Shown piece after piece: positions 31,829 to 63,660 of a stretch of 64,000 nt of DNA. Location: contig CAYFHS010000001.1 of the NCBI GenBank assembly GCA_964342815.1, positions 32,001 through 96,000 on the forward strand. Direction: 5' to 3'. A program made the position numbers and the translations under genes. The notes beneath the pieces are model-generated. The model saw only the letters and a program-made list of their open reading frames with translations, was not told where the DNA came from and made no database searches. Within the stretch, counting starts at the first letter, position 1. The number at the start of each line of letters is the position of its first letter. The DNA is from an uncultured archaeon (GTDB taxonomy: Archaea; Thermoplasmatota; Penumbrarchaeia; JASLWR01).

Positions 31829-33148
31829 ATGAAGCGAGATGTATTCATTGAAATTATACAGGACTTTAAAGAAAAATCACTCCCGGAATTGGTGGAACGT
31901 GAAACGATACTGAAAAGACCTACCGTAAAAAAAATAATTTCTGTGATCGGGCCTCGCAGAGCAGGTAAAACCTATTATATTTTCAATATTATAAAAAACC
32001 TAATCTCCGAGGGGATCCCGAAAGAGAGGGTGATTTACGTTAACCTTGAAGATGAGCGTTTATTTCCTCTTGAAGTAAAAGATATGGATTTATTTCTCCG
32101 GACCTTCTTTGAAATTCATTCTGTTGATAAAAATGAAGAAATCCATCTTTTTTTAGATGAAGTTCAAAATGTGGATAATTGGGAAGCATTTGTAAGGCGT
32201 ATAATGGACACATACAATATTCAAATATATATAACAGGTTCATCTTCGAAATTGTTATCTAAAGAAATTGCAACTTCATTGAGGGGTAGATCATTATCAA
32301 CAACTATACTACCATTTTCTTTTCGAGAATATTTAAAGGCAGGAAAAATTGAAATAAATAAATTTCTATCTTCATCAAAAAAAGAAAAAATCCGCTCTAA
32401 GCTTTCAATTTTTTTAAAATATGGCAGCTTTCCCGAAATCACCCTCGAAAAGGATAACGATCTAAAGCATAAGATCATTAAAGAATATGTTGAAGTTATG
32501 CTTCTTCAGGATATTATTGAAAGGTATAATATTAAAAATACAAAATTATTGAAAATATTATTTGATGGTATCATATCATCAACTTCAAGTACATTTTCAA
32601 TCCATAAATTCTTTAAATTTCTACGTTCACAAGGTATGAAAATTAGCAAGAATACCCTGTATCAGTATGTTCAATACCTTGAAGATGCCTACGCGATCAT
32701 ATTATTGAGAAGTTTTAATTTTTCAGCTCGTATGGTTGAACAGAGTTTACCGAAGGTCTACCCAATCGATCCCGGTTTCATATTGACACATTCCACTCGT
32801 TTTTCAAGGGACTTGGGGAAGGCTATGGAAAATGTAGTGGCAGTTGAACTTTTCAGGAGAAGATCCGAACAACCCAGTCAAGATATATATTACTGGAAAG
32901 AACAGAATAGCAAAGAAGTGGATTTTGTTATTAAAGAGAATCTGAAAATTACCAAATTAATTCAGGTTTGTTATGACATTGATAATTTCAATACCTACAG
33001 ACGTGAGATTGATTCTATACTCAGATCCAGTGAAATATTGGAATGTAATGATCTGTGTGTTATAACCTGGGATAAGGACGAAATAATTGAGGTAAAGGGT
33101 AAAAAAATAGAATACATCTCGCTCTGGAAATGGCTGATAGCTCATTGA
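31829..33148 (+). CDS. AAA+ ATPase, AAA_14 + DUF4143 family (AT-rich)
   Basis: GPRRAGKT, FLDEVQ, ITGSSS, SLRGR, GSFPE, KVYPIDPG, MENVV, EVDF; visibly more AT-rich than its neighbours. Confidence 0.9.
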   Translation: MKRDVFIEIIQDFKEKSLPELVERETILKRPTVKKIISVIGPRRAGKTYYIFNIIKNLISEGIPKERVIYVNLEDERLFPLEVKDMDLFLRTFFEIHSVDKNEEIHLFLDEVQNVDNWEAFVRRIMDTYNIQIYITGSSSKLLSKEIATSLRGRSLSTTILPFSFREYLKAGKIEINKFLSSSKKEKIRSKLSIFLKYGSFPEITLEKDNDLKHKIIKEYVEVMLLQDIIERYNIKNTKLLKILFDGIISSTSSTFSIHKFFKFLRSQGMKISKNTLYQYVQYLEDAYAIILLRSFNFSARMVEQSLPKVYPIDPGFILTHSTRFSRDLGKAMENVVAVELFRRRSEQPSQDIYYWKEQNSKEVDFVIKENLKITKLIQVCYDIDNFNTYRREIDSILRSSEILECNDLCVITWDKDEIIEVKGKKIEYISLWKWLIAH

Positions 33149-44367: not shown

Positions 44368-46215
44368 TTACCAGAGATGTTCGTTGCATATTCGTTCATC
44401 GAAATCGTAACAATCTTCACAAACCCATTTTTTACATTCTGTGCAGTAATTTACAGCGGCAAGTATACCTTCTTTTCGCAGTTTTTTTACCATCCGGTCC
44501 CTTTCCTCGGTGGTGAGAAACAGATCGTCCTTGGGCAAGTCGTCCAGGGCTTTCCCGGTAAAATCGGAATATAACTTTCTGATGCCCTTGATCCCCATTT
44601 CAGGGCGCAGTGTGGCGGCTCCGATACCCGCCATGGCGGCCCCCGCTCCCATGTTCACCCATCTTGCCCACCGCCGGTCTCTGATTGTTCCTACACCCTT
44701 GTCACAAACTGCGCATCTGAACTCGATTATCAGCGTTCCGGTCTTCTTTCTCATTCCGTAGGGGGTCGGAAGCTCCTTTGAGATATCGTTCATGTGCCGC
44801 TTCATCTTTTTCGACATTTTTCTCATATCTTCCCTAAGGTCTTTTTGTCCCTTTTTCAGTTCCCGCGTCCTTTTCCGGCTCCTCTCGTCCATGCCCTCCA
44901 GCTTTTCCCTCATCGCTTCCTCGTCCAATCCACGACTCACCTTGATGTCCTTTCCGATATTCGACCTCTGTACAACACTGTCCCGTATATCCACCTTCGA
45001 GGCACCTTCCGCGAGATAATCCCCCGTCACATTTAGGATGGTCGTGGGAGGTGGCCTTCCGTCTTCAGGGTCGGCTACGCTTAGTATAGCAGATTCCTTC
45101 TGGCGGAACTGTTTGTTCGCTGCATCCTGATACATGATCACGAGATTTGCCTTCGGTTTTCCCGCTCTTAGCGGTACCACGGATAGACCTGCGTGCGTGG
45201 TCACCCCCGGGGGCAGGCTTCCTAGAGCCGCGATCTTTTCCCCCTCGAAGAATGGCGATTCGAGCCTGACGGAAATATCCTTGGCACCGCCGTCACCGGA
45301 ATTCACAACCGACAGCGATAGAGTGGACACCAGATTCTGAACCATTCCTTCCATGGCCCTTAGCTTCACGTCCAGCCTGGGTTTTCCGGTTTCAGCAGCG
45401 GCCATCATATTTAGCCGTTCGGCTTCGGCTTCCCTGCGTATTTTCGATATCTCCTTTTTCAAGGTCTTTAACCAGGCCTTGTCCTGTTTGAGATTGTTCT
45501 TGATGTTCCGATCGCTCTTTATCTTGTATGATTTTCGATGAAGCTCCACCGCCTTCTCTCGAAGTTCCCTTGATCTCACGTACTCGTGCAAAGCAGATGA
45601 CCAGTTCTCCATTTCCCTCTCGGCACTGGCCTTGTAATAGTGATAGCCGGACCGATCCCGATAGTAGATGCCAAGGCGGTTGTTGTACCCTGACATGTTC
45701 TTGCTGGTCCTGCTGAGTTCGGCTGCCAGTTTCATAGTGTGGGCGCCGCTCAAACGGTATTCCGCCGCCCTCTCGAGATGCTCGGCCTTACCCTTTCCGG
45801 ATTTGGCGTTGGCCCTCTCCACTTCCGCATTGGCAAGAGATGTATATTTATCCCCTTCGGTGAAACGCATGTTCCCTTCGGTTACCGGATAGCTCGGGTC
45901 CCCGGGGTCCAGGTAGCTGAGGGAGTTATTGTCCGCTTGGATAGAATTGTCATAATATTCACCAACAAGGATCGAATCCTCTACGGTCTCCTCGTTTATC
46001 GCCCTTGCCCTGCTTGACCAGCCCCAGCTCTCGCAGTGTTTCTCCCAATAACTCTCTCCGGCATTGGAATAATATTCCGCGGCCTGGAAATATAATTCCG
46101 ACGCTTCCATATCGTCATTGTCGTCCACCGCTTTTACCGCCTTTTCCCTTAGCTTATCCGCTCTCGCAATTGAACTAAAATCCCCTTTCTTTGCGGTCTT
46201 TCCGAAAAATCCCAT
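44368..46215 (-). CDS. Multidomain hypothetical protein: helical repeats, CARDB-like Ig domain, coiled coil, Cys-rich zinc-binding C-terminus
   Basis: GAGGTG SD; A/E/Y-rich helical repeats; LSVVNSGDGGAKDISV; CAVC...CTEC...CEDC...C.EH. Confidence 0.75.
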   Translation of the reverse strand: MGFFGKTAKKGDFSSIARADKLREKAVKAVDDNDDMEASELYFQAAEYYSNAGESYWEKHCESWGWSSRARAINEETVEDSILVGEYYDNSIQADNNSLSYLDPGDPSYPVTEGNMRFTEGDKYTSLANAEVERANAKSGKGKAEHLERAAEYRLSGAHTMKLAAELSRTSKNMSGYNNRLGIYYRDRSGYHYYKASAEREMENWSSALHEYVRSRELREKAVELHRKSYKIKSDRNIKNNLKQDKAWLKTLKKEISKIRREAEAERLNMMAAAETGKPRLDVKLRAMEGMVQNLVSTLSLSVVNSGDGGAKDISVRLESPFFEGEKIAALGSLPPGVTTHAGLSVVPLRAGKPKANLVIMYQDAANKQFRQKESAILSVADPEDGRPPPTTILNVTGDYLAEGASKVDIRDSVVQRSNIGKDIKVSRGLDEEAMREKLEGMDERSRKRTRELKKGQKDLREDMRKMSKKMKRHMNDISKELPTPYGMRKKTGTLIIEFRCAVCDKGVGTIRDRRWARWVNMGAGAAMAGIGAATLRPEMGIKGIRKLYSDFTGKALDDLPKDDLFLTTEERDRMVKKLRKEGILAAVNYCTECKKWVCEDCYDFDERICNEHLW

Positions 46216-47863: not shown

Positions 47864-49450
47864 ATGGTGTTTAAAGATTCATCGTCTATCGATCAACTAA
47901 TGAAAAGAAGTGATATATTGCGGTTCTTTCTAAAGGGCAGATTGAAGTTGAGTAGATATGCAGAAGAGGCCGTGGACGACCTCGAAACATTTTTTACGGA
48001 AGCCAACGGCACGCTTCTTGCCAGAGGTGCCTCCCCGGGGGATGGAGCAAGGGTTCTGTCGTGGTCTCTTGAGGATGATGTAATCCATTTGGAGATAGGC
48101 AGCGAAGGGCCGATAAGGGCTCACGATGCGCTGCTTCGGTTAAAGAACGGGATCGGCAGGGAACTGGGAAAGAAACACCGACTGGGTGTTCGAAACAGCT
48201 ACGTTGATCTATACGAGATTACCTTTTCCCTGGAATACCCTCCCGTGGATGAGCTGACGATCCCTTATGCTGCCTCTGTACGTTTCGAAGGGATGGAATG
48301 CACCCTTCGTCTTGAAAATGTCGATGAAGTGTTTCTCAGAGAGAATTACATCGACCGAATGATCAGCCTTATCCGTGACAAGACTGCTGGCCAGCATTAC
48401 AAGGGCAAGGGCGAATACTGGGAGGAAATATGGAGGTCGCCTCAGCGCGAAATCGTATATCAAAATGACCCTACAGAGGATATGGTTGAAAAGAAATGGA
48501 TCAAACAGGGGCCCACAAAGGGAAAATGGTTTCTCCGGCCCGAGATCACGAAGATAATGAGGATAATGGAGCAGATCGCCATCAATGAGGTTTTGGCTCC
48601 CCTGGGATTCCAGGAAATCATTGCCTCACATATGGTACCATTTGAAATATGGATAAAGACAGGTCATATGGCAGGCTCGCCAAATGAATTTTATTACGTG
48701 TCGGAACCCGCTACCAGAGATCCGGCGGCCTGGGAGACCTTCTCGGACCTCGTGAAGATAACGCGAAAGGTTCCGTACGAGGAACTGGGAAAATGTCTGG
48801 CCGGACCCCGGGCCGGCATCTGTTATGCCCAGTGCCCTGTCATCTACTGGTCCTTCAAGAGCGAGACCCTGGCCGATGATTCCCTGCCCGTTCTTTTATT
48901 CGAACGGACCGCAAATTCGGGGAGGTATGAATCCGGGGGCCGACACGGTATGGAGCGGGTGGACGAGTTCCACCGCATAGAGCCAGTTTACATCGGGACG
49001 AAGGAGCAGATGCTGGAGATAAGGCATAAAATGCTCGATGCATACAAGCACGTGTTCAACGATATTCTGGAACTGGAATGGAGAATGGCAAGGGTCACAC
49101 CCTTCTACATGCAGCAAAGTGGGGGATTCGGATTGGATGATCCGGGATCCGAAGAAGAAACGGAAAAAAGCAAGGGGACCATCGATTTCGAGGCATATAT
49201 GCCTTACAGGGGAGGGAGAGAGGATAGCGAGTGGCTCGAGTTCCAGAATTTCTCCATAGTGGGGGATAAATACACCAGGGCTTTCAATATCAAATCCCAG
49301 ACGAAAGAACTGTGGTCGGGCTGTTCGGGGATAGGTCTCGAGAGATGGAGCACGGCCTTCCTGGCGCAATATGGGCTATCACCTGACTCTTGGCCTTCGG
49401 AATTTCGAAGAATATACGGTAAGATGCCCAGCGGTATTCGTTTTCTATAG
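47864..49450 (+). CDS. serS: Seryl-tRNA synthetase, methanogen type (type 2)
   Basis: Zinc-site motifs CYAQCP, RYESGGRHGMERVDEFHRIE, WSGCSGIGLERW; N-terminal AHDALLR. The exact start is uncertain. Confidence 0.9.
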   Translation: MVFKDSSSIDQLMKRSDILRFFLKGRLKLSRYAEEAVDDLETFFTEANGTLLARGASPGDGARVLSWSLEDDVIHLEIGSEGPIRAHDALLRLKNGIGRELGKKHRLGVRNSYVDLYEITFSLEYPPVDELTIPYAASVRFEGMECTLRLENVDEVFLRENYIDRMISLIRDKTAGQHYKGKGEYWEEIWRSPQREIVYQNDPTEDMVEKKWIKQGPTKGKWFLRPEITKIMRIMEQIAINEVLAPLGFQEIIASHMVPFEIWIKTGHMAGSPNEFYYVSEPATRDPAAWETFSDLVKITRKVPYEELGKCLAGPRAGICYAQCPVIYWSFKSETLADDSLPVLLFERTANSGRYESGGRHGMERVDEFHRIEPVYIGTKEQMLEIRHKMLDAYKHVFNDILELEWRMARVTPFYMQQSGGFGLDDPGSEEETEKSKGTIDFEAYMPYRGGREDSEWLEFQNFSIVGDKYTRAFNIKSQTKELWSGCSGIGLERWSTAFLAQYGLSPDSWPSEFRRIYGKMPSGIRFL

Positions 49451-49540
49451 CTCCGTATCACTATTCTGATTTCCCACGCTTATGCTGGCTGCCGAATTAC
49501 TCCAAAATACTTATAATAAACCAACTTGATGTGGCCACTG

Positions 49541-50251
49541 ATGGAATCCGTCATAGAGGTTGCGAAAGTACAGAAGGTATTCAACAAATTCCGGGCTCTT
49601 GATGACGTATCGTTCAAGGTTAAAAAGGGTGAGTTCTTCGGATGTTTTGGACCCAACGGTGCCGGGAAGACCACATTGATCCGCATTCTCACAGGACAGC
49701 TTCCAAGGACCAAGGGACACGTTCGTGTTCTGGGAATAGATCCAAGTGAAAATCCAATCGACGTAAAGAAGAGAATTGGTATCGTTCCCGAGTCTGAATC
49801 GCCTCCTTCCTTTTTGACGGGGTGGGAGTACCTCTATTTCGTTGCCCATATTCGGCGATTGCCGAATATTGAGACGAAGATCAAACACTGGTTGGAATTT
49901 TTCGATATGACGGGACACGAGAGCACCATATGCAAGGATCTGTCCAAGGGAATGCGACAAAAGCTGATGCTGTCTGCGGCTCTAATACACGAACCGGAGC
50001 TTCTGATTCTAGACGAACCGCTGATAAACCTCGATCCGATATATCAGAGAAGGGTCAAAGACCATCTCAAAAATTATGCAAAGAAGAGGACCGTGTTCAT
50101 GTGCACGCATATTCTCGAAGCTGCTGAGAAACTTTGCGGCAATTCCGTCATCCTGAACAAGGGCAAGATTGTGGGCAGGGGTAAGATCGCACAGCTTCGT
50201 GCCAAGGATAGCGAGAACCTTGAAGATATTTTCCTTAGACTAGTAGAATAG
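49541..50251 (+). CDS. ABC transporter ATP-binding protein (stand-alone)
   Basis: GPNGAGKT, LSKGMRQK, LILDEP, H-loop CTH; no permease adjacent. Confidence 0.9.
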   Translation: MESVIEVAKVQKVFNKFRALDDVSFKVKKGEFFGCFGPNGAGKTTLIRILTGQLPRTKGHVRVLGIDPSENPIDVKKRIGIVPESESPPSFLTGWEYLYFVAHIRRLPNIETKIKHWLEFFDMTGHESTICKDLSKGMRQKLMLSAALIHEPELLILDEPLINLDPIYQRRVKDHLKNYAKKRTVFMCTHILEAAEKLCGNSVILNKGKIVGRGKIAQLRAKDSENLEDIFLRLVE

Positions 50252-54362: not shown

Positions 54363-55613
54363 TCATTTTACCTTTATAGAAAACCGTTCGATATAATCGC
54401 CAAATCTTTTAATTATCTCGTCGCGGTCCAGGCCGAACTGTTCCGGACTGTAGCGATGTTTCCCAGGCTTATCGCCACGGTGTCGCTGAAGATATTCACG
54501 GACTCTCCCGTCGGATTCCTTGTCGTATGGAAGGTTAAAATACCTCTTTATATCAGAGACGGCACGGGGAATGTTCTCAATCAAGGTCTCGAAATTTATG
54601 TCATAGAATCGATCATCTCCCTCAAGCTGGCGGAATTTCATTAGCTCATCTACCCCGGAATGGAATCGGTCCTCCATCATTTCACCCACCAGTTCCGCAT
54701 CGATATGTCCGTAAAAAATTCTCCGCCCGAGCCCCATGAGACTGCAGAAGGAGGCAATGCTGTTCACGGGATTGCGGTGCGACCATACTATGCAGGCATC
54801 CGGAAAGGTCTTGAGTATGAATTTGAGATTCCATATGTGAGATGGACATTTCAGAACGAATCTCTCGGTTGGAGTGACATGGGCCTGGATCTGCAGCATG
54901 CGCTTGTAGTCCTCGAACACCCAGGTTCGGTCCATTGCCATGAGCCATTGGTTCCACTGGTGGAGGCCTGTTGCTATATCCGTGTTCCCCAGGGCCAGGG
55001 TGTTTGCCAGCAGTATCCAGCACTCTTCTACGGAATCTGCCTTTACCTCATGGGCCACAGACATTTCGGGTACTCCAACTCTGATCAGGCGGAGCGGTAG
55101 GTCAACCTTGCGGATACGCAGTTTACGGTCAAGCTCACGGGATTCATGCAGCGGGTACGGTGTTGCAAGTTCCCACAGATACAATGCCCGATAAGCGGGC
55201 CCCAGGGAAAGAACGTTCTGCAAGAGGGTGGTCCCGGTACGGGGGAAACCCACGACGAAAACGGGTGACTCTATGGGGATATTTTCCACATCGGAATTTC
55301 TTCGAATGTAGTCCTCAATGTACAGCCGGTTCATGGCGGTCTTGAGCGCAAGAAAATATATAGCGTAGATCCCGAGGGGAGTTATTTCCGTATTTCGCGC
55401 ATTATCTATCAAGCGGTCGAGAACCTCGACATATTTCTCGTTGCCGAGATCGGTCAATCCCGTTTTCATCCGGGCCCGCTCGAGGATGGAATCCCGGTCG
55501 AGCTCCCAAATTTTCAGCCCCAATTTCTTACCAATGTCCATCAGCATATTAACAAGTTTTACAGAGGGCTGCGCTTCCATACGGTTGACCGTGTAATGCG
55601 GGATCCCGTCCAT
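54363..55613 (-). CDS. Sulfotransferase family protein (Sulfotransfer_3-like)
   Basis: PVFVVGFPRTGTTLL (5'-PSB loop), VLKCPSH, IVWSHRNP..SIAS (3'-PB). Confidence 0.88.
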   Translation of the reverse strand: MDGIPHYTVNRMEAQPSVKLVNMLMDIGKKLGLKIWELDRDSILERARMKTGLTDLGNEKYVEVLDRLIDNARNTEITPLGIYAIYFLALKTAMNRLYIEDYIRRNSDVENIPIESPVFVVGFPRTGTTLLQNVLSLGPAYRALYLWELATPYPLHESRELDRKLRIRKVDLPLRLIRVGVPEMSVAHEVKADSVEECWILLANTLALGNTDIATGLHQWNQWLMAMDRTWVFEDYKRMLQIQAHVTPTERFVLKCPSHIWNLKFILKTFPDACIVWSHRNPVNSIASFCSLMGLGRRIFYGHIDAELVGEMMEDRFHSGVDELMKFRQLEGDDRFYDINFETLIENIPRAVSDIKRYFNLPYDKESDGRVREYLQRHRGDKPGKHRYSPEQFGLDRDEIIKRFGDYIERFSIKVK

Positions 55614-55861
55614 GATGGGGTATTGGAGTAAAATTAGAAAAGAATTTCGGCAGTTACTAAGTACACCTGTGAAACCGATATCCGAAATTATTTATACTAT
55701 TCGATTGTTTATGCGGCAAAATAGATTTTAATCGAATAGATTATTAAAGATTATAATTTAATATTATTGAGTATAAAATAGACAGATTAGACTTGAGCTT
55801 TGAATCAAATCGAATCATTCTATATTATAATATGATTGTTAAATTAGGGAAGTGAGAATGA

Positions 55862-56134
55862 ATGATAATAAGTAAAGTGATCGGAACTCCCACCTCGACA
55901 TTCAAGATAAAGGAGCTAAACGGCAGTAAATTACTGGTCGTTCTACCTTTGAATCCCATGAATATGAGACCCGAGGGAACACCTTTCATCTGCGAGGACA
56001 GGCTGGGAGCCGGGAGGGGTAATCTCGTCCTGATCAGCAGCACCAACCGCAAGGGCAGCCTGGTGGATGCCTGTGTGGTGGGTATACTGGATTCGCTGGA
56101 GATAGAGAACCGGGTGGTCTACGAAACGGAATGA
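55862..56134 (+). CDS. BMC pentamer (vertex) protein, EutN/CcmL family
   Basis: MIISKVIGT..STFK...LNGSKLLVV...D.LGAG.G.LVLI...DACVVGILD matches the EutN/CcmL pattern along its full length. Confidence 0.92.
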   Translation: MIISKVIGTPTSTFKIKELNGSKLLVVLPLNPMNMRPEGTPFICEDRLGAGRGNLVLISSTNRKGSLVDACVVGILDSLEIENRVVYETE

Positions 56135-56317
56135 GCATAAACCGACAGAGCCCTATAATTTTCGATCAAATAATTGGAATAGCTTTCATTTGGATAATCG
56201 AATTATTTCGTAACAAAATGAGATTAGTTGCCTTGCAAAAATAATTACAATCAATTAATATTTGAACTCTTTACGAATCTAAAAAAACAATAATAATAAA
56301 AAACGGACCGGGATAAT

Positions 56318-56857
56318 TTGGTAAGTTTTGGAATAATTGAGATGCGCTCACCCGTCAAGGGATTGAAACTCGTCGCTGAGGTCCAGACCGGAGGCGATGT
56401 GGAGCCCATAATGATAAAGGCGGATGATCCGAAATATTTCATTGTCATATTCCGAGGAAGGCGGGACGAGCTTATTACCGTACTCGACGCGGTTTATAAA
56501 AGCAACGGGCGTGATTACCTAAAAAAGACTATTATACCATCACCTCACCCGGAGCTTTTAGAGGTCCTTCTGCTGAAAGGTACCGGAGAAAACGTGAAGC
56601 ATCTAGGATTGATGGAGATCAATGGTTACGGAGCAATGATGAAATGTGCCGATATTGTTCTGAAGACCCCCGCAATGGCGGTTCTGAGCATTGTTTTCGA
56701 TACTTTGACGGGAACAGGTCAATTAGCCATAGCAGGCGTGGACACGGTTTTTCCGTCGCTGTTCATGGAGATGAGAGGGATCTGCGGCAGCCTGAATATA
56801 CGAAGCGCATCCGTGATCAGCACCCCTGGAAAAAAGATCATAGAGGCAATTTTGTAA
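56318..56857 (+). CDS. Divergent tandem BMC-domain shell protein (BMC-T-like)
   Basis: Two BMC-sized halves: FGIIEM...IIPSPHPELLEVL and LGLMEINGYGAMMKCADIVLK...VISTPGKKIIEAIL; TTG start. Confidence 0.72.
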   Translation: MVSFGIIEMRSPVKGLKLVAEVQTGGDVEPIMIKADDPKYFIVIFRGRRDELITVLDAVYKSNGRDYLKKTIIPSPHPELLEVLLLKGTGENVKHLGLMEINGYGAMMKCADIVLKTPAMAVLSIVFDTLTGTGQLAIAGVDTVFPSLFMEMRGICGSLNIRSASVISTPGKKIIEAIL

Positions 56858-56910
56858 ACGTGGCAGTATTTACGATTAATGATATTGAATAAATGAATAG
56901 AGGTGAATAT

Positions 56911-57570
56911 ATGGCGAACAAGACCATAGGTGTGATAGAGACCGAGGGACTGCTCGATGCGTTCCTGGCGAGCGATGCAATGATCAAAGGGGCAAACGTG
57001 GAATTGACCGCAAGATATCTTCTTGGGGGGGGTGTGGTGACCCTTGTCATTTCCGGTGCTCCCGCGGCTGTAAAATCAGCTATTGATATTACTGAAAAGG
57101 ATTTTATAAATAAGAATATCCGAACTGCCATCATACCGAACATTTCCGGCAAGGTGGCGGAAATCATGCTCTCCACCGGAGAATCGCCGAAGAAACATCC
57201 CTCAAGCCGTGGCGGGATACTTAAAAAACGCGAACGTGAACCGTCAGCAGCACCCAGGGCTGCCCCGGGTCGAGGCAGCAGCGTACCATCCATATTCGAT
57301 ACGAATCTTGGATCGGATGACCATCTCGAAAGTTCATACAAGAAAAGACGCGCTACCGTTGAATCGGAAAAGGACATCAAAAAACGGCAGGCTCTGATAA
57401 TCCAGTATCTGGTGGCCAACAGGCACAACAAGGTATCCATAAGCAATATGGAAAAGGTGATACCAAATGCTTCGAAGGTCACTCTGAGGCGGGACCTGCA
57501 CGAACTGATCGACCAGGGAAAGATCGAGAAGGTGGGTCGGGGCAGGGCCACACATTACAAGATACGCTGA
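56911..57570 (+). CDS. BMC hexamer shell protein fused to a C-terminal winged-helix (DeoR-like) domain
   Basis: IGVIETEGLLDAFLASDAMIKGANVEL...GGGVVTLVISG.PAAVKSA; basic linker; RQALIIQYL...TLRRDLHELIDQGKIEKVGRGRATHY. GAGGTGA SD before ATG 56911. Confidence 0.92.
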   Translation: MANKTIGVIETEGLLDAFLASDAMIKGANVELTARYLLGGGVVTLVISGAPAAVKSAIDITEKDFINKNIRTAIIPNISGKVAEIMLSTGESPKKHPSSRGGILKKREREPSAAPRAAPGRGSSVPSIFDTNLGSDDHLESSYKKRRATVESEKDIKKRQALIIQYLVANRHNKVSISNMEKVIPNASKVTLRRDLHELIDQGKIEKVGRGRATHYKIR

Positions 57571-58668
57571 TCAAAGGCATCTTTCGGCTTTGGTTAGTAC
57601 CACGGGCGAGCCGTCCTCGATCAATATGTCGTCTTCTATTCTGACACCGCCCTTGCCGGGAATATAAATACCCGGTTCAACGGTAAAAACGTGGCCGTTC
57701 TCCATTTTCTTCTTCATATCGAATCTTATACCGTTGGGGGCCTCGTGAACTTCCAGGCCGATACCGTGTCCGGTGGAATGGACAAAGTGTTTACGAAGGT
57801 CCTTTTGGGCGAACAGGTCCCGTATTGATTTGTCGATGACGCCGTAGGGTTCTCCCTTCTTCGCGAGAGCGATCCCATTTTGCTGTCCCTCGAGGACCAG
57901 ATCATAAACCTCTTTCATCTCCCTGCTCGCTTCACCCACTGATATGGTACGCGTACAATCGCTGCAGTAGCCGTTCACGTAAACACCAAAATCGATTATG
58001 ACCAGGTCGCCCTTTCGCAATTTCCGGTCCGTGACGTCATGATGGGAAAAAGCCGATTTCGGCCCGCCTGCCACGATTGTCTCGAAGGAAGTTGTCTGAA
58101 CTCGCGGGTCCTTCCGCAAAAGAGAATTCAGTTCTCTTGCAACATGGCGCTCGGTGACTCCAGGCACCGCCATCTCCCTCAATTCTTCGGCCGCCGTGTC
58201 GGTGATCTTGGTTGCATACTTTATGTAGCCGATCTCGTCTGCGTTCTTTTTAATTCTCATCTCTTCTACGAATCCCGACGTTTCCTGTTTTACTAGACGG
58301 GTGGAAACCCTGGTGTCGGAAACGGCGGTTTTCCACTTCTGCTTCCTGATGAGGTCCTTCAGAACGGCAAGACCTGTCTTCCCGTCCGAGCGTATCCCCG
58401 GGTATGGGGAAAATATCTTCAGTTCATCAACCTCGGCCTCCTCCATTGCGCGGAACTGCTCCAGTGATGAAGTTATTCCGTACATATGTCCGGTCCTGTC
58501 AACAATAACATGGTTCAGGAGCGGAAATGAGGGTATGTGGGCACAGGATAGATATCTCACGTTGCCGGGATTTGTCGCGATAAAAATATCTTTGTCCTTT
58601 TCTTCCAGGTGGTTCTGGATTTTCTGCCAGCGTTCTTCGTAGACCTTCCTTGCTATCTGCTCGTTCAT
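57571..58668 (-). CDS. Xaa-Pro aminopeptidase / prolidase, M24 family
   Basis: IDFGVYVNGYCSDCTRT, HSTGHGIGLEVHE, TVEPGIY, GVRIEDD; start moved to ATG 58668. Confidence 0.92.
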   Translation of the reverse strand: MNEQIARKVYEERWQKIQNHLEEKDKDIFIATNPGNVRYLSCAHIPSFPLLNHVIVDRTGHMYGITSSLEQFRAMEEAEVDELKIFSPYPGIRSDGKTGLAVLKDLIRKQKWKTAVSDTRVSTRLVKQETSGFVEEMRIKKNADEIGYIKYATKITDTAAEELREMAVPGVTERHVARELNSLLRKDPRVQTTSFETIVAGGPKSAFSHHDVTDRKLRKGDLVIIDFGVYVNGYCSDCTRTISVGEASREMKEVYDLVLEGQQNGIALAKKGEPYGVIDKSIRDLFAQKDLRKHFVHSTGHGIGLEVHEAPNGIRFDMKKKMENGHVFTVEPGIYIPGKGGVRIEDDILIEDGSPVVLTKAERCL

Positions 58669-58730
58669 AGAAACACCCATCAATCTAAAAATCCCCTGAA
58701 CCCCCCTGTGGATTACTTCTAAAGTCACCA

Positions 58731-58875
58731 CTTGACAAGTATGACACGCCCTTAGGTATACTTGCCGAGGGCGCCCATTGCATTCCGTTGGATTGGAAAT
58801 CCAACTGCGCCCTTGTCAAGTATGACTACAGGCCCAGCAACGCCTGAACGGTGTTGCGTAACGAAGTGCGCGCCA
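58731..58875 (-). other. Structured leader/sRNA candidate with two CTTGWCAAGTATGAC copies
   Basis: 15-nt repeats at 58731-58745 and 58812-58826; nested stems agggcgc/gcgccct, gttggat/atccaac, gcaac/gttgc. Confidence 0.4.
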
Positions 58876-58949: not shown

Positions 58950-59108
58950 TTATTTGACCCAGTTAAACCCTCTTCTCTTGGCGGAACTGCCGAAACCGCA
59001 TGACGCGCATTCCTTCTTCCTTGCGTGATAGGAATGATTCCCGCATCTTCTGCAGGATATATGGGTCTTTTTGTTCCTCTTGCCGTACGAGGGCGTTCCC
59101 TTTGACAT
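58950..59108 (-). CDS. rpl37e: 50S ribosomal protein L37e
   Basis: Too short for the ORF track; manual translation [52 protein letters not shown]. Confidence 0.97.
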
Positions 59109-59140
59109 AATTATGACCTCAATTATTTAACGTAGATTCA

Positions 59141-59359
59141 TCAGGGAGAGATGTAGACCACATTGTCCCCCCGGACGATCACCAGCTCCAGTTTTCTCAT
59201 GACCTCGTTGTCATGGATCTCCTCCGCCGTCTTCAGCACGAGATTCATGTGGGGATCGTAGCCCACCAGCACGCCGCGGTATTCGCGTTTGTTCCTCAGT
59301 TCCACTATCACCCTGTTTCCGATGCTCTTGTTCAGTATGTATAGTGGTCTATCGGGTAT
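59141..59359 (-). CDS. Sm-like archaeal protein (LSm/SmAP); probable ATA start
   Basis: RPLYIL...GVLVGYDPHMNLVL...VIVRGDNVVYISP; conserved linkage to rpl37e; GGAGG + 7 nt + ATA at 59359. Confidence 0.93.
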   Translation of the reverse strand: MPDRPLYILNKSIGNRVIVELRNKREYRGVLVGYDPHMNLVLKTAEEIHDNEVMRKLELVIVRGDNVVYISP

Positions 59360-59401
59360 GCTGATGCCTCCTGATTCGAGCGGGCACAATAACTGCATCG
59401 A

Positions 59402-59599: not shown

Positions 59600-59711
59600 T
59601 GTAGTATTTACTACACTTATCTTCGCCCATTTAATGATGTTACTACACTAATTTTCTAATTTTTAATGACATTACTACATCAATTTTTCATTTTTTAGTG
59701 ACATTACTACA
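59600..59711. repeat. Four TACTACA-anchored units at exact 32-bp period; the first is a perfect palindrome
   Basis: TACTACA at 59609, 59641, 59673 and 59705; TGTAGTA-TT-TACTACA at 59600-59615. Confidence 0.8.
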
Positions 59712-61053: not shown

Positions 61054-61860
61054 TTACTGCGGAAACTCGCCCGGGACCAGCTTTTCCAAAATATTTTCAA
61101 CAGCTTCAATGATGGGCTGATTTCCTTTGGTCCCGAAAAGGGAAATACCCTTAAGGTCAGATTCCATGGCTTTTTCTGAATATGGGATCGATCCGATCAT
61201 ATCGATACCAAGGTCTTTAAGGCGTCTTCCGATCTCCTCGTCATGGGATCGTCCCCGGCTTTTATTCAGAACCGCCACAATTCGGGGGAGGCCAAGGTCC
61301 TTAGCCAGTTTTTTTATTCTTGATGCTGTCTCAACCGACCTCTGTCCCGGCTCCACCACTATGAGCAGAACATCGATGTTACGCGTCGTACCCCTTCCCA
61401 GGTGCTCCACCCCTGCCTCCATATCCATTATAAGGATCTCTTCCTTTCTAACGAGATGACTCAACAGACGTCTTAATAGTGCCGATTCGGGACAGAAACA
61501 CCCCCCTCCACCGGTCTGTATGGTGCCAAGTACTATAAGGGTGACGTTATCCTTTCCCTTCACCCCGTATTTTCCCAGAAGATCATCCACCTCCGGATTG
61601 ATCTTGTATATCTTACCCTGGCTTTCCCCCGGCCTTACGCCGGTTCTTTCCGCCACCAGATCATATAAATGGCATAAAGGTACGATTTTTTTTCGCTCCT
61701 CCTCAGAAATACCCAGAGAAAGAGCGAGATTCGGGGAAGGATCGCAATCGACCAATACCACTTTCTTTCCGGAGCGTCCCATGAGTCTTGCCATGGTGCT
61801 CGCAAGAGTCGTTTTCCCCACTCCGCCTTTTCCGGACACGGCGATCTTAATGGAGCCCAA
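61054..61860 (-). CDS. cooC: CooC-type nickel-insertion ATPase
   Basis: IAVSGKGGVGKTT, DCDPSPNL, GGGCFCPES (CxC Ni site), DMEAGVEHLGRGT. Confidence 0.88.
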   Translation of the reverse strand: MGSIKIAVSGKGGVGKTTLASTMARLMGRSGKKVVLVDCDPSPNLALSLGISEEERKKIVPLCHLYDLVAERTGVRPGESQGKIYKINPEVDDLLGKYGVKGKDNVTLIVLGTIQTGGGGCFCPESALLRRLLSHLVRKEEILIMDMEAGVEHLGRGTTRNIDVLLIVVEPGQRSVETASRIKKLAKDLGLPRIVAVLNKSRGRSHDEEIGRRLKDLGIDMIGSIPYSEKAMESDLKGISLFGTKGNQPIIEAVENILEKLVPGEFPQ

Positions 61861-62052: not shown

Positions 62053-62313
62053 CATTATCACCCAAATCGGTATGTTAAACACCTCCTGTAATTTATTTCT
62101 TATTCGAACTATTACGGATTTATTTTAAAAAAATCGTCCAAATGTGTATTCTACGTTCTTATCTCGATAAAAAACCCGTCAATCCGGCTGTTACAAAGAC
62201 CTATTTTAGAGAGTACCACCCAAAAAGATATATCCAATCGACATTAATTCCATGCATAATCATTAAGCGGTATGATCCCAAGATCAATATCATCAGCAAA
62301 GGAGAAACGTTCC

Positions 62314-63660
62314 ATGCTCCCTCATGATCCGTTCAGGCTTTCTTTGACTACAAGAGATATTGAGAGATTCAGAAATGGATTGGATGCTCTTGAATATTCT
62401 CGATTCAAGGCGAAAGAGCGCGAAATACTTGTTATAAGGTCGCCTTCTCTAAAAGTCAGCCTGGTGGAAGACCTGGAGCTGATGGTTGAGATGATAGATA
62501 TCGAGGATGCACTGGGACTTGATGAAGCGTACCTTATCGGGGATGAGGACTATGAGCCGGTAGCTCCGGAGATATTGACGAACATTGCAAGTGCACGGCT
62601 GCGTATCGAAAAGGGATATCTTGAAAAATACGGGCCGATACTGCTAAAAGAATACAGTTCAAAAGAATTCATAGATCCCAAAGATCCACTGGAATTGTTG
62701 AGATTGATCGTTCGGGTTCCCTTGAAGGAGAGCGAATACATATCCACCCCTCTCGCGGAGATAATCTCCCATGTCTATATCCCAAACGATATAAGTATAG
62801 TTTTTCTCATGCTCGAGGATTCCTACAGACGGATCATCAAGGATGATATTGTCGCGGCAAAGGCTGAAAAAGAAAGACCGAAACGCAAAGCGAAGATAGA
62901 ATCACTACCGGAATCGTTGAGCCCTAAGGAATGGGACGAAGAGGCGTGGTTATTGAACGAACTTGCGAGGATTGGTCTTCCCCAGGGATCTGAAGTCGTT
63001 CAATCACATAAAAAAGTTATAGGTGACGAAAGCCCTGCAGATATAGACGGCCATTTCCCGGAAGGGTCGATAAAAACGGGCGAAATTCTGGCCCTGCCTG
63101 CCCCCAAAGGCAAAATGGATAATATGCCAGAACCCGGCGGAATTGATCGCAATGATGTTTCCTCATTTCCAAAATACACTCACAAGGAGTCACGCGGTAA
63201 AGATACCCCTGAGGCATTTATTGATAACATCTTCCGAAATCAAGGTGAAAAACAGGAGATAGTTGAAACTTTCCCTGTTGCCGCCCACCCAAGCTCGGAC
63301 AAAGGAAGAACCGGAAAGCAGTTTCCGGAAAATACCCTGGACAAATACGCCAGTATCATGGAAAAGCTGAAAATGGATGGGATCCAGTTTCATGAAGTGG
63401 AAGGTATTGAAAAAACCATTCTTATACAGCGGAATGACCGGACGAGAATTCTTGCAACTTACACGAAAAAATGTGAGATCGAGGATATGGTCGCTCTCGA
63501 AAAGAACGTTGCTGAGAAAGACGCAGACCTTGGATTGATGATTTCATTAGAATTTTCCTATGACTCGAAACTGTTCGTGGTAGGACGGGATCTGGATCTT
63601 TTAAAATGGGATGTGTTCTTAAACGACGGGCTTGTAGTTGAACCCTCTTGGTTCTATTGA
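62314..63660 (+). CDS. Hypothetical protein with possible degenerate Mrr-like restriction-endonuclease fold at the C-terminus
   Basis: Start moved to ATG 62314 (GGAG SD); C-terminal DLGLMISLEFSYDSKLFVVGRDLDLLKW is reminiscent of the end of Mrr_cat. Confidence 0.6.
   Translation: MLPHDPFRLSLTTRDIERFRNGLDALEYSRFKAKEREILVIRSPSLKVSLVEDLELMVEMIDIEDALGLDEAYLIGDEDYEPVAPEILTNIASARLRIEKGYLEKYGPILLKEYSSKEFIDPKDPLELLRLIVRVPLKESEYISTPLAEIISHVYIPNDISIVFLMLEDSYRRIIKDDIVAAKAEKERPKRKAKIESLPESLSPKEWDEEAWLLNELARIGLPQGSEVVQSHKKVIGDESPADIDGHFPEGSIKTGEILALPAPKGKMDNMPEPGGIDRNDVSSFPKYTHKESRGKDTPEAFIDNIFRNQGEKQEIVETFPVAAHPSSDKGRTGKQFPENTLDKYASIMEKLKMDGIQFHEVEGIEKTILIQRNDRTRILATYTKKCEIEDMVALEKNVAEKDADLGLMISLEFSYDSKLFVVGRDLDLLKWDVFLNDGLVVEPSWFY

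Follow-up and report, generated by a model that had tools for sequence, protein, structure and literature searches.

Archaeal microcompartments have been reported only in a preprint of November 2025, mostly from Asgard archaea, in which Du et al. describe those of the Hodarchaeales together with shell assembly experiments (bioRxiv 10.1101/2025.11.08.687404; PMC12747264). There, the JASLWR01 order of Thermoplasmatota is named as a second carrier, SpSt-1190 also being one, and the JASLWR01 operons are described as having no PTAC and as having lost one hexamer-forming shell protein (BMC-H; BMC, bacterial microcompartment), while loci without aldehyde dehydrogenase and DERA are classed as 'incomplete' and left out of the analysis (PMC12747264). 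Here we describe a locus of an uncultured marine JASLWR01 archaeon in which three shell genes lie together on one strand (+), at positions 55862-57570 of a stretch of 64,000 nucleotides (positions 32,001 to 96,000 of contig CAYFHS010000001.1, assembly GCA_964342815.1) that is called the window below. They encode an EutN/CcmL-type vertex pentamer protein (BMC-P), a tandem-domain protein (BMC-T), and a BMC-H with a C-terminal winged helix-turn-helix (BMC-H-wHTH). An archaeal microcompartment as such is not new for this order, and the statement of an earlier sequence-only reading of the window that none had been characterised in archaea is outdated by the preprint. What is new is a conserved satellite module of P, T, and H genes among core archaeal genes and a lineage-restricted BMC-H-wHTH family with orphan paralogs. 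The locus is best read as such a satellite and not as a self-contained minimal organelle; we hold it moderately probable that it is a satellite shell module of a sugar-phosphate-utilising (SPU-type) archaeal microcompartment, with an H subunit that links the compartment to DNA.

Several described systems share parts of this arrangement. The model shell of Haliangium ochraceum (PDB 5v74, 5dih, 6n06) is built from the same three tile classes, and PduT, a tandem BMC protein with a 4Fe-4S cluster, has the same tandem topology and a similar length to the BMC-T found here. DeoR regulators, which typically control sugar-phosphate catabolism, a possible tie to SPU cargo, carry their helix-turn-helix at the N-terminus, followed by a DeoR_C sensor domain. 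DNA binding by shell proteins has been proposed before. In the Hodarchaeales, it is claimed to proceed via basic tails on the pentamers (PMC12747264). EutK of Salmonella and E. coli joins an N-terminal BMC-H domain to a C-terminal, positively charged helix-turn-helix, as the protein described here does; its deletion in Salmonella leaves Eut compartments immobile at the cell poles, and EutK governs the distribution of these compartments, with a ParB-like link to DNA having been proposed (PMC12487888).

Shell gene trio

All three proteins are genuine shell building-block types. That these types are encoded together on one strand, as the sequence-only reading had held, is borne out by the two Pfam families to which it had pointed, which between them match all three genes: BMC-P matches all 83 profile positions of PF03319 (58.5 bits; cut-off 25), BMC-T matches PF00936 in two stretches (31.5 bits), and the hexamer domain of BMC-H-wHTH matches PF00936 with 56.7 bits against a cut-off of 24.5. 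Compared with the Haliangium shell, BMC-T superposes on HO-5812 at a TM-score of 0.80-0.83 and the H domain on the Haliangium BMC-H at about 0.8; unlike the tiles of that shell, to which sequence identity is 15-35%, the H protein is extended by a putative DNA-binding domain and has no Arg at the edge position. The features of the locus are collected in Table 1.

Table 1. Features of the shell locus and its anchor genes, in window coordinates
Feature	Position	Strand	Details
AT-rich (73%) region upstream of the trio, candidate promoter and operator	55614-55861	+	
BMC-P (EutN/CcmL-type vertex pentamer protein)	55862-56134	+	90 aa, PF03319
P-T spacer, AT-rich, with the fourth AATCGAAT site at 56196	56135-56317	+	
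BMC-T, divergent single-layer tandem (PduT / HO-5812-like)	56318-56857	+	179 aa, TTG start
BMC-H-wHTH, open reading frame	56893-57570	+	225 aa as open reading frame; likely gene 56911-57570, 219 aa
GAGGTGA, Shine-Dalgarno-like	56900-56906	+	4 nt before ATG 56911
BMC-H domain, residues 1-88 of 219	56911-57174	+	PF00936
Basic linker, disordered, residues 89-152	57175-57366	+	net charge +5, pLDDT <50
DeoR-type winged helix-turn-helix and stop codon, residues 153-219	57367-57570	+	net charge +9, PF08220
M24 peptidase (context anchor, not in the system)	57571-58731	-	
Ribosomal protein L37e (context anchor, not in the system)	58950-59108	-	
LSm (context anchor, not in the system)	59141-59398	-	

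The AlphaFold2 (AF2) model of BMC-T (pLDDT 87.9, pTM 0.86) consists of two beta-alpha-beta-beta-alpha-beta units, and Foldseek places it at TM 0.80-0.85 to HO-5812 and cages derived from it (5dih, 8uf0) and at 0.68-0.71 to PduT. The PduT model TIGR02526 is its best NCBIfam match (E 6.6e-12), with a score of 45.5 bits that lies far below the equivalog cut-off of 250.3. Unlike PduT, the protein has no Cys in domain 1, its only ones being residues 110 and 156, so that no cluster site like that of PduT is to be expected. The TTG start is kept in the congener G001 ('Thermoplasmatota archaeon ETNP2_MAG_1', accession prefix JASLWR01, the namesake genome of the order). BMC-T evolves much faster than P and H, and its orthologues in metagenomes no longer match Pfam.

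The contig that contains the window, 343 kb long, is the largest of a 4.35-Mb metagenome-assembled genome (MAG), here G000, with 88.9% completeness and 3.2% contamination, and the local GC content is similar to that of the surroundings. All four genomes of the family carry the trio at the same chromosomal position: the order P-T-H followed by the M24 peptidase (then L37e and LSm) is repeated in G001, G002, and G003, and again in two independent metagenome assemblies from other samples, a 77.8-kb ENA contig and a Logan contig. In every trio-bearing genome, the M24 peptidase, L37e, and LSm are convergent with or downstream of the trio. Among the archaeal markers named in the sequence-only reading, L37e and LSm are found in the window at 58950-59398 (79 and 88 bits; 1.4-1.8 kb downstream), as is a type-2, methanogen-type SerRS at 47864-49450 (+), 6.4-8 kb upstream. 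The recurrence of the same junctions in four MAGs and two independent assemblies, on a 343-kb contig with archaeal markers, contradicts a misassembly flanking the cluster and upholds the earlier view that the genes are no contaminant. The position of the module among core informational genes points to long domestication and not to recent transfer. The Thermoplasmatota version of the archaeal microcompartment includes an accessory module of shell genes, passed on vertically through three genera or more.

Amino acid identities of P, T, and H to this genome are 98, 66, and 91% in G001, 83, 36, and 61% in G003, and 58, 27, and 35% in G002, and the DNA of the window is 82.8% identical to that of G001 over 9.4 kb. 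In the comparison of this genome with G001, the dN/dS values of P, T, and H are 0.029, 0.226, and 0.073, respectively (M24 peptidase, 0.089), and all three shell genes are under purifying selection. A pseudogene or relic is ruled out by these values.

The BMC-H-wHTH protein

The C-terminal wHTH, to which the sequence-only reading gave no weight, is the most distinctive feature of the locus. The gene most likely starts at ATG 56911 (MANKT...), because homologues begin at MANKT and the GAGGTGA stands 4 nt upstream of this codon; the Shine-Dalgarno-like element noticed earlier is indeed present, and the start that goes with it is this ATG and not that of the open reading frame at 56893. The BMC-H domain (AF2 pLDDT about 83) matches PduA, EutM, CsoS1A, and also the Haliangium BMC-H at TM 0.79-0.87 (target-normalised) with an rmsd of 1.5-2.9 Å. 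Alignments agree with the earlier observation of the edge motif D-x-x-x-K (SDAMIK), which corresponds to D22 and K26 in PduA numbering; within SDAMIKGAN, N29 is kept as well, and the pore loop reads GGG. The edge Arg (PduA R79, CsoS1A R83) is absent from all satellite copies, which have Asn at this place (Asn77, within IIPNIS, in the present protein), whereas the main-operon H of the sister genomes keeps it (IPRPH).

The wHTH matches PF08220 (HTH_DeoR) over residues 165-214 of the 225-aa open reading frame, with 24 bits against a cut-off of 21, and is modeled with a pLDDT of about 91 in the topology H-H-H-E-E, the recognition helix being SKVTLRRDL; the C-terminal 131 residues of the protein together have a net charge of +14. 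A sequence search of the PDB with the wHTH alone gave nothing significant, the best match being an HxlR-family protein (E 0.05). The domain shares with DeoR regulators the family match and the T-x-RRDL signature of the recognition helix; it differs from them in standing at the C-terminus with a BMC fold as its partner, and the DeoR_C sugar-phosphate sensor has no Pfam match in the protein. Within the otherwise variable linker, the motif VPSIFD (residues 125-130; 57283-57300) is nearly invariant among aligned homologues, and could be a short linear interaction motif.

Despite the shared domain order, the protein and EutK are probably independent fusions. Against the EutK equivalog NF012010, it scores 36.9 bits, below the cut-off of 218, and only across residues 11-66, that is, the BMC domain; it is no orthologue of EutK, belongs to a clade of its own, and bears a DeoR-type wHTH on a 64-residue linker. 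DNA binding by a basic extension of a shell protein, as proposed here, is also claimed for the Hodarchaeales microcompartments, the element there being a disordered K/R tail on the pentamer and here a folded wHTH on a hexamer subunit. The fusion is in this sense a convergent parallel to both. In the text of the preprint, satellite locus, HTH, and winged helix are nowhere mentioned (PMC12747264).

A profile of 11 members searched against 1.84 billion representative proteins retrieved 4760 BMC-domain proteins, only seven of them at E <1e-30, which were six full-length matches to BMC-H-wHTH and one C-terminal fragment. Word-based searches with P and H returned only 5 and 11 proteins, respectively, all internal to the lineage, and no donor could be named; the contigs of P0014 and P0016 are below 2 kb, and their gene context is uninformative. 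In a quick maximum-likelihood tree of BMC domains, all BMC-H-wHTH proteins form one clade (SH-aLRT 99), parted by a long branch from the other 99 BMC-H domains, among which is the H that the main operon encodes in the same genomes; the 91 columns of this tree do not resolve deeper relations.

The family also has members that stand apart from shell genes in 4 of 4 genomes of the family. In G000, this solitary paralog (C6:136432-137088; L030:4432-5088) has 218 aa and no Pfam match, its neighbors being MCM, DUF424, and an SPFH protein to one side and PdxS and NAD kinase to the other; its orthologues lie on G001:C147, G003:C49, and G002:C3. That of G002 is 341 aa long with two wHTH-like stretches. 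In the alignment of BMC domains, the edge D/K is lost in the orphans of G000 and G003 and kept in that of G002. With these shell-less orphans, the family offers a clean case of the recruitment of a shell fold into putative DNA-binding proteins.

Main SPU operon and cargo

Within the class, BMC genes occur in only 5 of 37 species genomes, namely the four of this family and G005 from another family, which has shell genes of the same operon kind on short contigs. G001, G002, and G003 each have, separate from the trio, a main SPU operon with an aldehyde dehydrogenase (AldDH), an RnfC-like protein, a triosephosphate isomerase (TIM), RpiB, a DeoC aldolase, and a shell set of one BMC-H (two in G003), one BMC-T, and three BMC-P. 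In G002, the order is BMC-domain protein, a 263-aa protein of no family, BMC-P, AldDH, RnfC/Nuo51-like flavoprotein, BMC-T, BMC-P, TIM, RpiB, BMC-P, BMC-H, DeoC-family aldolase, and DHH protein. The satellite proteins are only 32-43% identical to their main-operon paralogs. These operons resemble those of the preprint in archaeal order and shell families and are of the SPU type without PTAC; the preprint analyses main operons, while the locus here is a satellite. At L015:6595-7990 (G002) and L016:670-2067, the main operons start with a protein of about 210 aa whose partial BMC domain is confined to the C-terminus (residues 144-200), and their second protein, of about 250-263 aa, has no Pfam family.

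No AldDH, glycyl-radical enzyme, or Rubisco gene stands beside the trio, as the sequence-only reading had noted; its suggestion of an unconventional cargo is unnecessary, given the complete SPU-type operon elsewhere in the sister genomes and an orthologous contig in metagenome run X1. In the 4.35-Mb assembly itself, tblastn with all main-operon proteins of G001 and G002 found weak paralogs only (26-33%) and no SPU core genes; a clean deletion of the operon is not demonstrable, as the G001 flanks fall on different G000 contigs at about 56% amino acid identity. The G001 main operon was compared with contigs from the four data sets that best match the DNA of the window. Run X1, in which 97% of the words of the window occur and which may be its source metagenome, has a single 32,058-bp contig (depth 12.5) collinear with L016:623-11948, the match consisting of eight pieces at about 80-85% nucleotide identity, and no near-identical copy of the G001 type is present. 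As the window is 82.8% identical to G001, the divergence of this contig matches this species, and it is likely, judged by this match, that the population has the SPU operon and that its contig was left unbinned. A shell-only locus with the main locus elsewhere is seen in G001, G002, and G003, and for this genome the main locus is inferred from run X1.

A proposed satellite module with a DNA-coupling hexamer

Under the favored reading, the cargo would be encoded in a separate main operon (AldDH, DeoC-type aldolase, TIM, RpiB, and an RnfC-like flavoprotein), which was probably left out of this MAG. To the main shell, the satellite would add a fourth vertex pentamer, a fast-evolving single-layer trimer, and a minor hexamer subunit with a basic, flexible linker of about 64 residues that ends in a DeoR-type winged helix, the satellite proteins co-assembling with those of the main operon. 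In solved shells, such as those of Haliangium, the C-terminus of BMC-H lies on the concave, cytosol-facing side, so that a hexamer would be predicted to display six DNA-binding wHTH domains on the outside of the shell. These domains may then bind DNA and couple the organelle to it, as proposed for EutK. Since the main operons of JASLWR01 have lost one BMC-H, the satellite H could fill that place. The sister main SPU operon matches the JASLWR01 microcompartment of the preprint, which speaks for this reading, and by analogy a EutK-like DNA anchor or regulator is the preferred role of BMC-H-wHTH. A role specifically in positioning or tethering is a tentative part of it, one that we would put somewhat below an even chance. 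The locus makes testable how protein organelles are positioned, partitioned, or regulated in cells without known McdAB-type systems.

Several points weigh against this reading. G005 has at least the shell genes of the main operon with neither satellite P nor BMC-H-wHTH, so that the satellite is dispensable for a shell and appears as an add-on specific to this family. The main operon is absent from the present assembly, and the 32-kb contig is assigned to this organism solely by its matching divergence. Without the Arg of the Asn-Arg-Lys edge triad, the satellite H may tile poorly, and the orphan paralogs that have lost the edge D/K, amid unrelated housekeeping genes, indicate that the family can evidently work free of a shell. 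Finally, a DeoR-type helix and repeated ATCGAAT motifs at its own promoter would be no less in keeping with a sequence-specific regulator than with a tether.

The last point leads to the strongest alternative, that BMC-H-wHTH is chiefly a transcription factor, with its BMC domain serving as a hexamerisation module or as a handle for sequestration by the shell, while P and T remain shell parts. The wHTH would bind ATCGAAT operators at the promoter of the trio, and perhaps of other microcompartment genes, so that the availability of the regulator would report the state of shell assembly. Besides the HTH_DeoR match above its cut-off and the TLRRDL-type recognition helix, the DNA upstream of the trio is in keeping with this. 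Three AATCGAAT/ATTCGATT sites precede P (55699, 55730, 55808), and with the one in the P-T spacer, AATCGAAT occurs four times within 55699-56203, the only cluster of at least three within 600 bp in the 4.35 Mb of the genome. Of six orthologous upstream regions, five contain ATCGAAT, with one copy directly after a conserved TATA-like block (AAATTATTTATAC, kept in G001, G003, and the metagenome contig L031), a typical position for an archaeal repressor. The solitary paralogs in all four genomes of the family, two of them without the edge D/K, likewise resemble stand-alone DNA-binding proteins. On the other side, the motif was picked post hoc, and an unbiased scan finds that 267 of 4353 1-kb bins (6%) hold some 8-mer four times, which makes the cluster weak evidence and a lead only; the motif was not found upstream of the G002 trio nor, convincingly, upstream of the main operons. 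Moreover, purifying selection on the satellite protein is strong, and the edge Lys, the edge Asn, and a canonical pore loop have all been preserved in it, which would be unexpected if tiling were irrelevant; that it is always linked to P and T also suggests a structural function. A chiefly regulatory protein is accordingly an unlikely but serious possibility; tethering and regulation are not mutually exclusive.

Another observation concerns the same region. A noncoding block of about 35 nt (AAATTATTTATACTATTCGATTGTTTATG, window 55680-55720) is kept across three genera (L019, L020, L031), 150-250 nt upstream of the P start. It resembles a TATA box with an ATTCGAT site behind it, and this would imply a long 5' leader.

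Rather less likely still, the fusions of BMC domain and wHTH might form an unrecognised archaeal family of DNA-binding proteins exapted from shell proteins, namely hexameric discs with six tethered winged helices, of which the satellite copy would dock the organelle on the ATCGAAT array as on a centromere-like element or an operator, and the orphans would by now be shell-independent chromatin proteins or transcription factors. If this is true, the archaeon would own a system for organelle partition or assembly feedback.

The trio might also build an autonomous minimal shell of H, T, and P, like the Haliangium model shell and independent of the SPU operon; the cargo genes would then lie at another site, or the partner would be DNA or RNA. 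In favor of this, the three tile types occur together, the trio is the only BMC locus of the assembled genome, and both the distance of its proteins from their main-operon paralogs and the long, well-supported branch of the H clade fit such independence. However, the SPU operon is present in all sister genomes that carry the trio, and run X1 contains an orthologue at matching divergence; the sole H of the trio lacks the edge Arg, and the conserved neighbors are housekeeping genes, with no conserved enzyme gene accompanying the trio. This constant co-occurrence with SPU genes and the missing Arg render an autonomous shell improbable.

That the locus is a bacterial contaminant, an assembly chimera, or what is left of a transferred operon in decay, as might be thought of BMC genes, which are overwhelmingly bacterial, in a MAG with some estimated contamination, can be set aside as having a negligible chance, since synteny with identical junctions in MAGs and independent assemblies, the archaeal markers (L37e, LSm, and methanogen-type SerRS) within 8 kb on a long contig, unremarkable GC, and intact reading frames with dN/dS of 0.03-0.23 exclude it.

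Neighboring genes and further observations

An Rfam scan of 55300-57800 gave nothing of note, with one sub-threshold snoRNA match (E 0.77). The radB gene, placed about 6 kb away by the sequence-only reading, did not turn up in the neighbors scanned, of which 49526-50251 is an ABC ATPase and 61054-61860 (-) a CooC/MinD-like one. The latter, 3.5 kb from the trio, is a P-loop ATPase of the MinD/ParA/CooC type with a GGGCFCPE (CxC) motif and probably a CooC-like maturation factor; a ParA-type positioning ATPase close to a shell locus would merit attention. The SerRS at 47864-49450, found here in a member of the Thermoplasmatota, combines a tRNA_bind_4 N-domain with a class II core that scores weakly. 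Two large open reading frames, 62272-63660 (+) and 44368-46215 (-), encode proteins of 462 and 615 aa with no Pfam family at E <= 1e-5.

Divergent from the trio, a Sulfotransfer_3-family sulfotransferase is encoded at 54363-55613 (-). The gene is intact here, is split in G001 into open reading frames of 241 and 155 aa, and in G002, G003, and the metagenome contigs it is not next to the trio. The intergenic stretch 59600-59711 upstream of LSm is 74-79% identical to that of G001, compared with 95% for the adjacent L37e and LSm genes.

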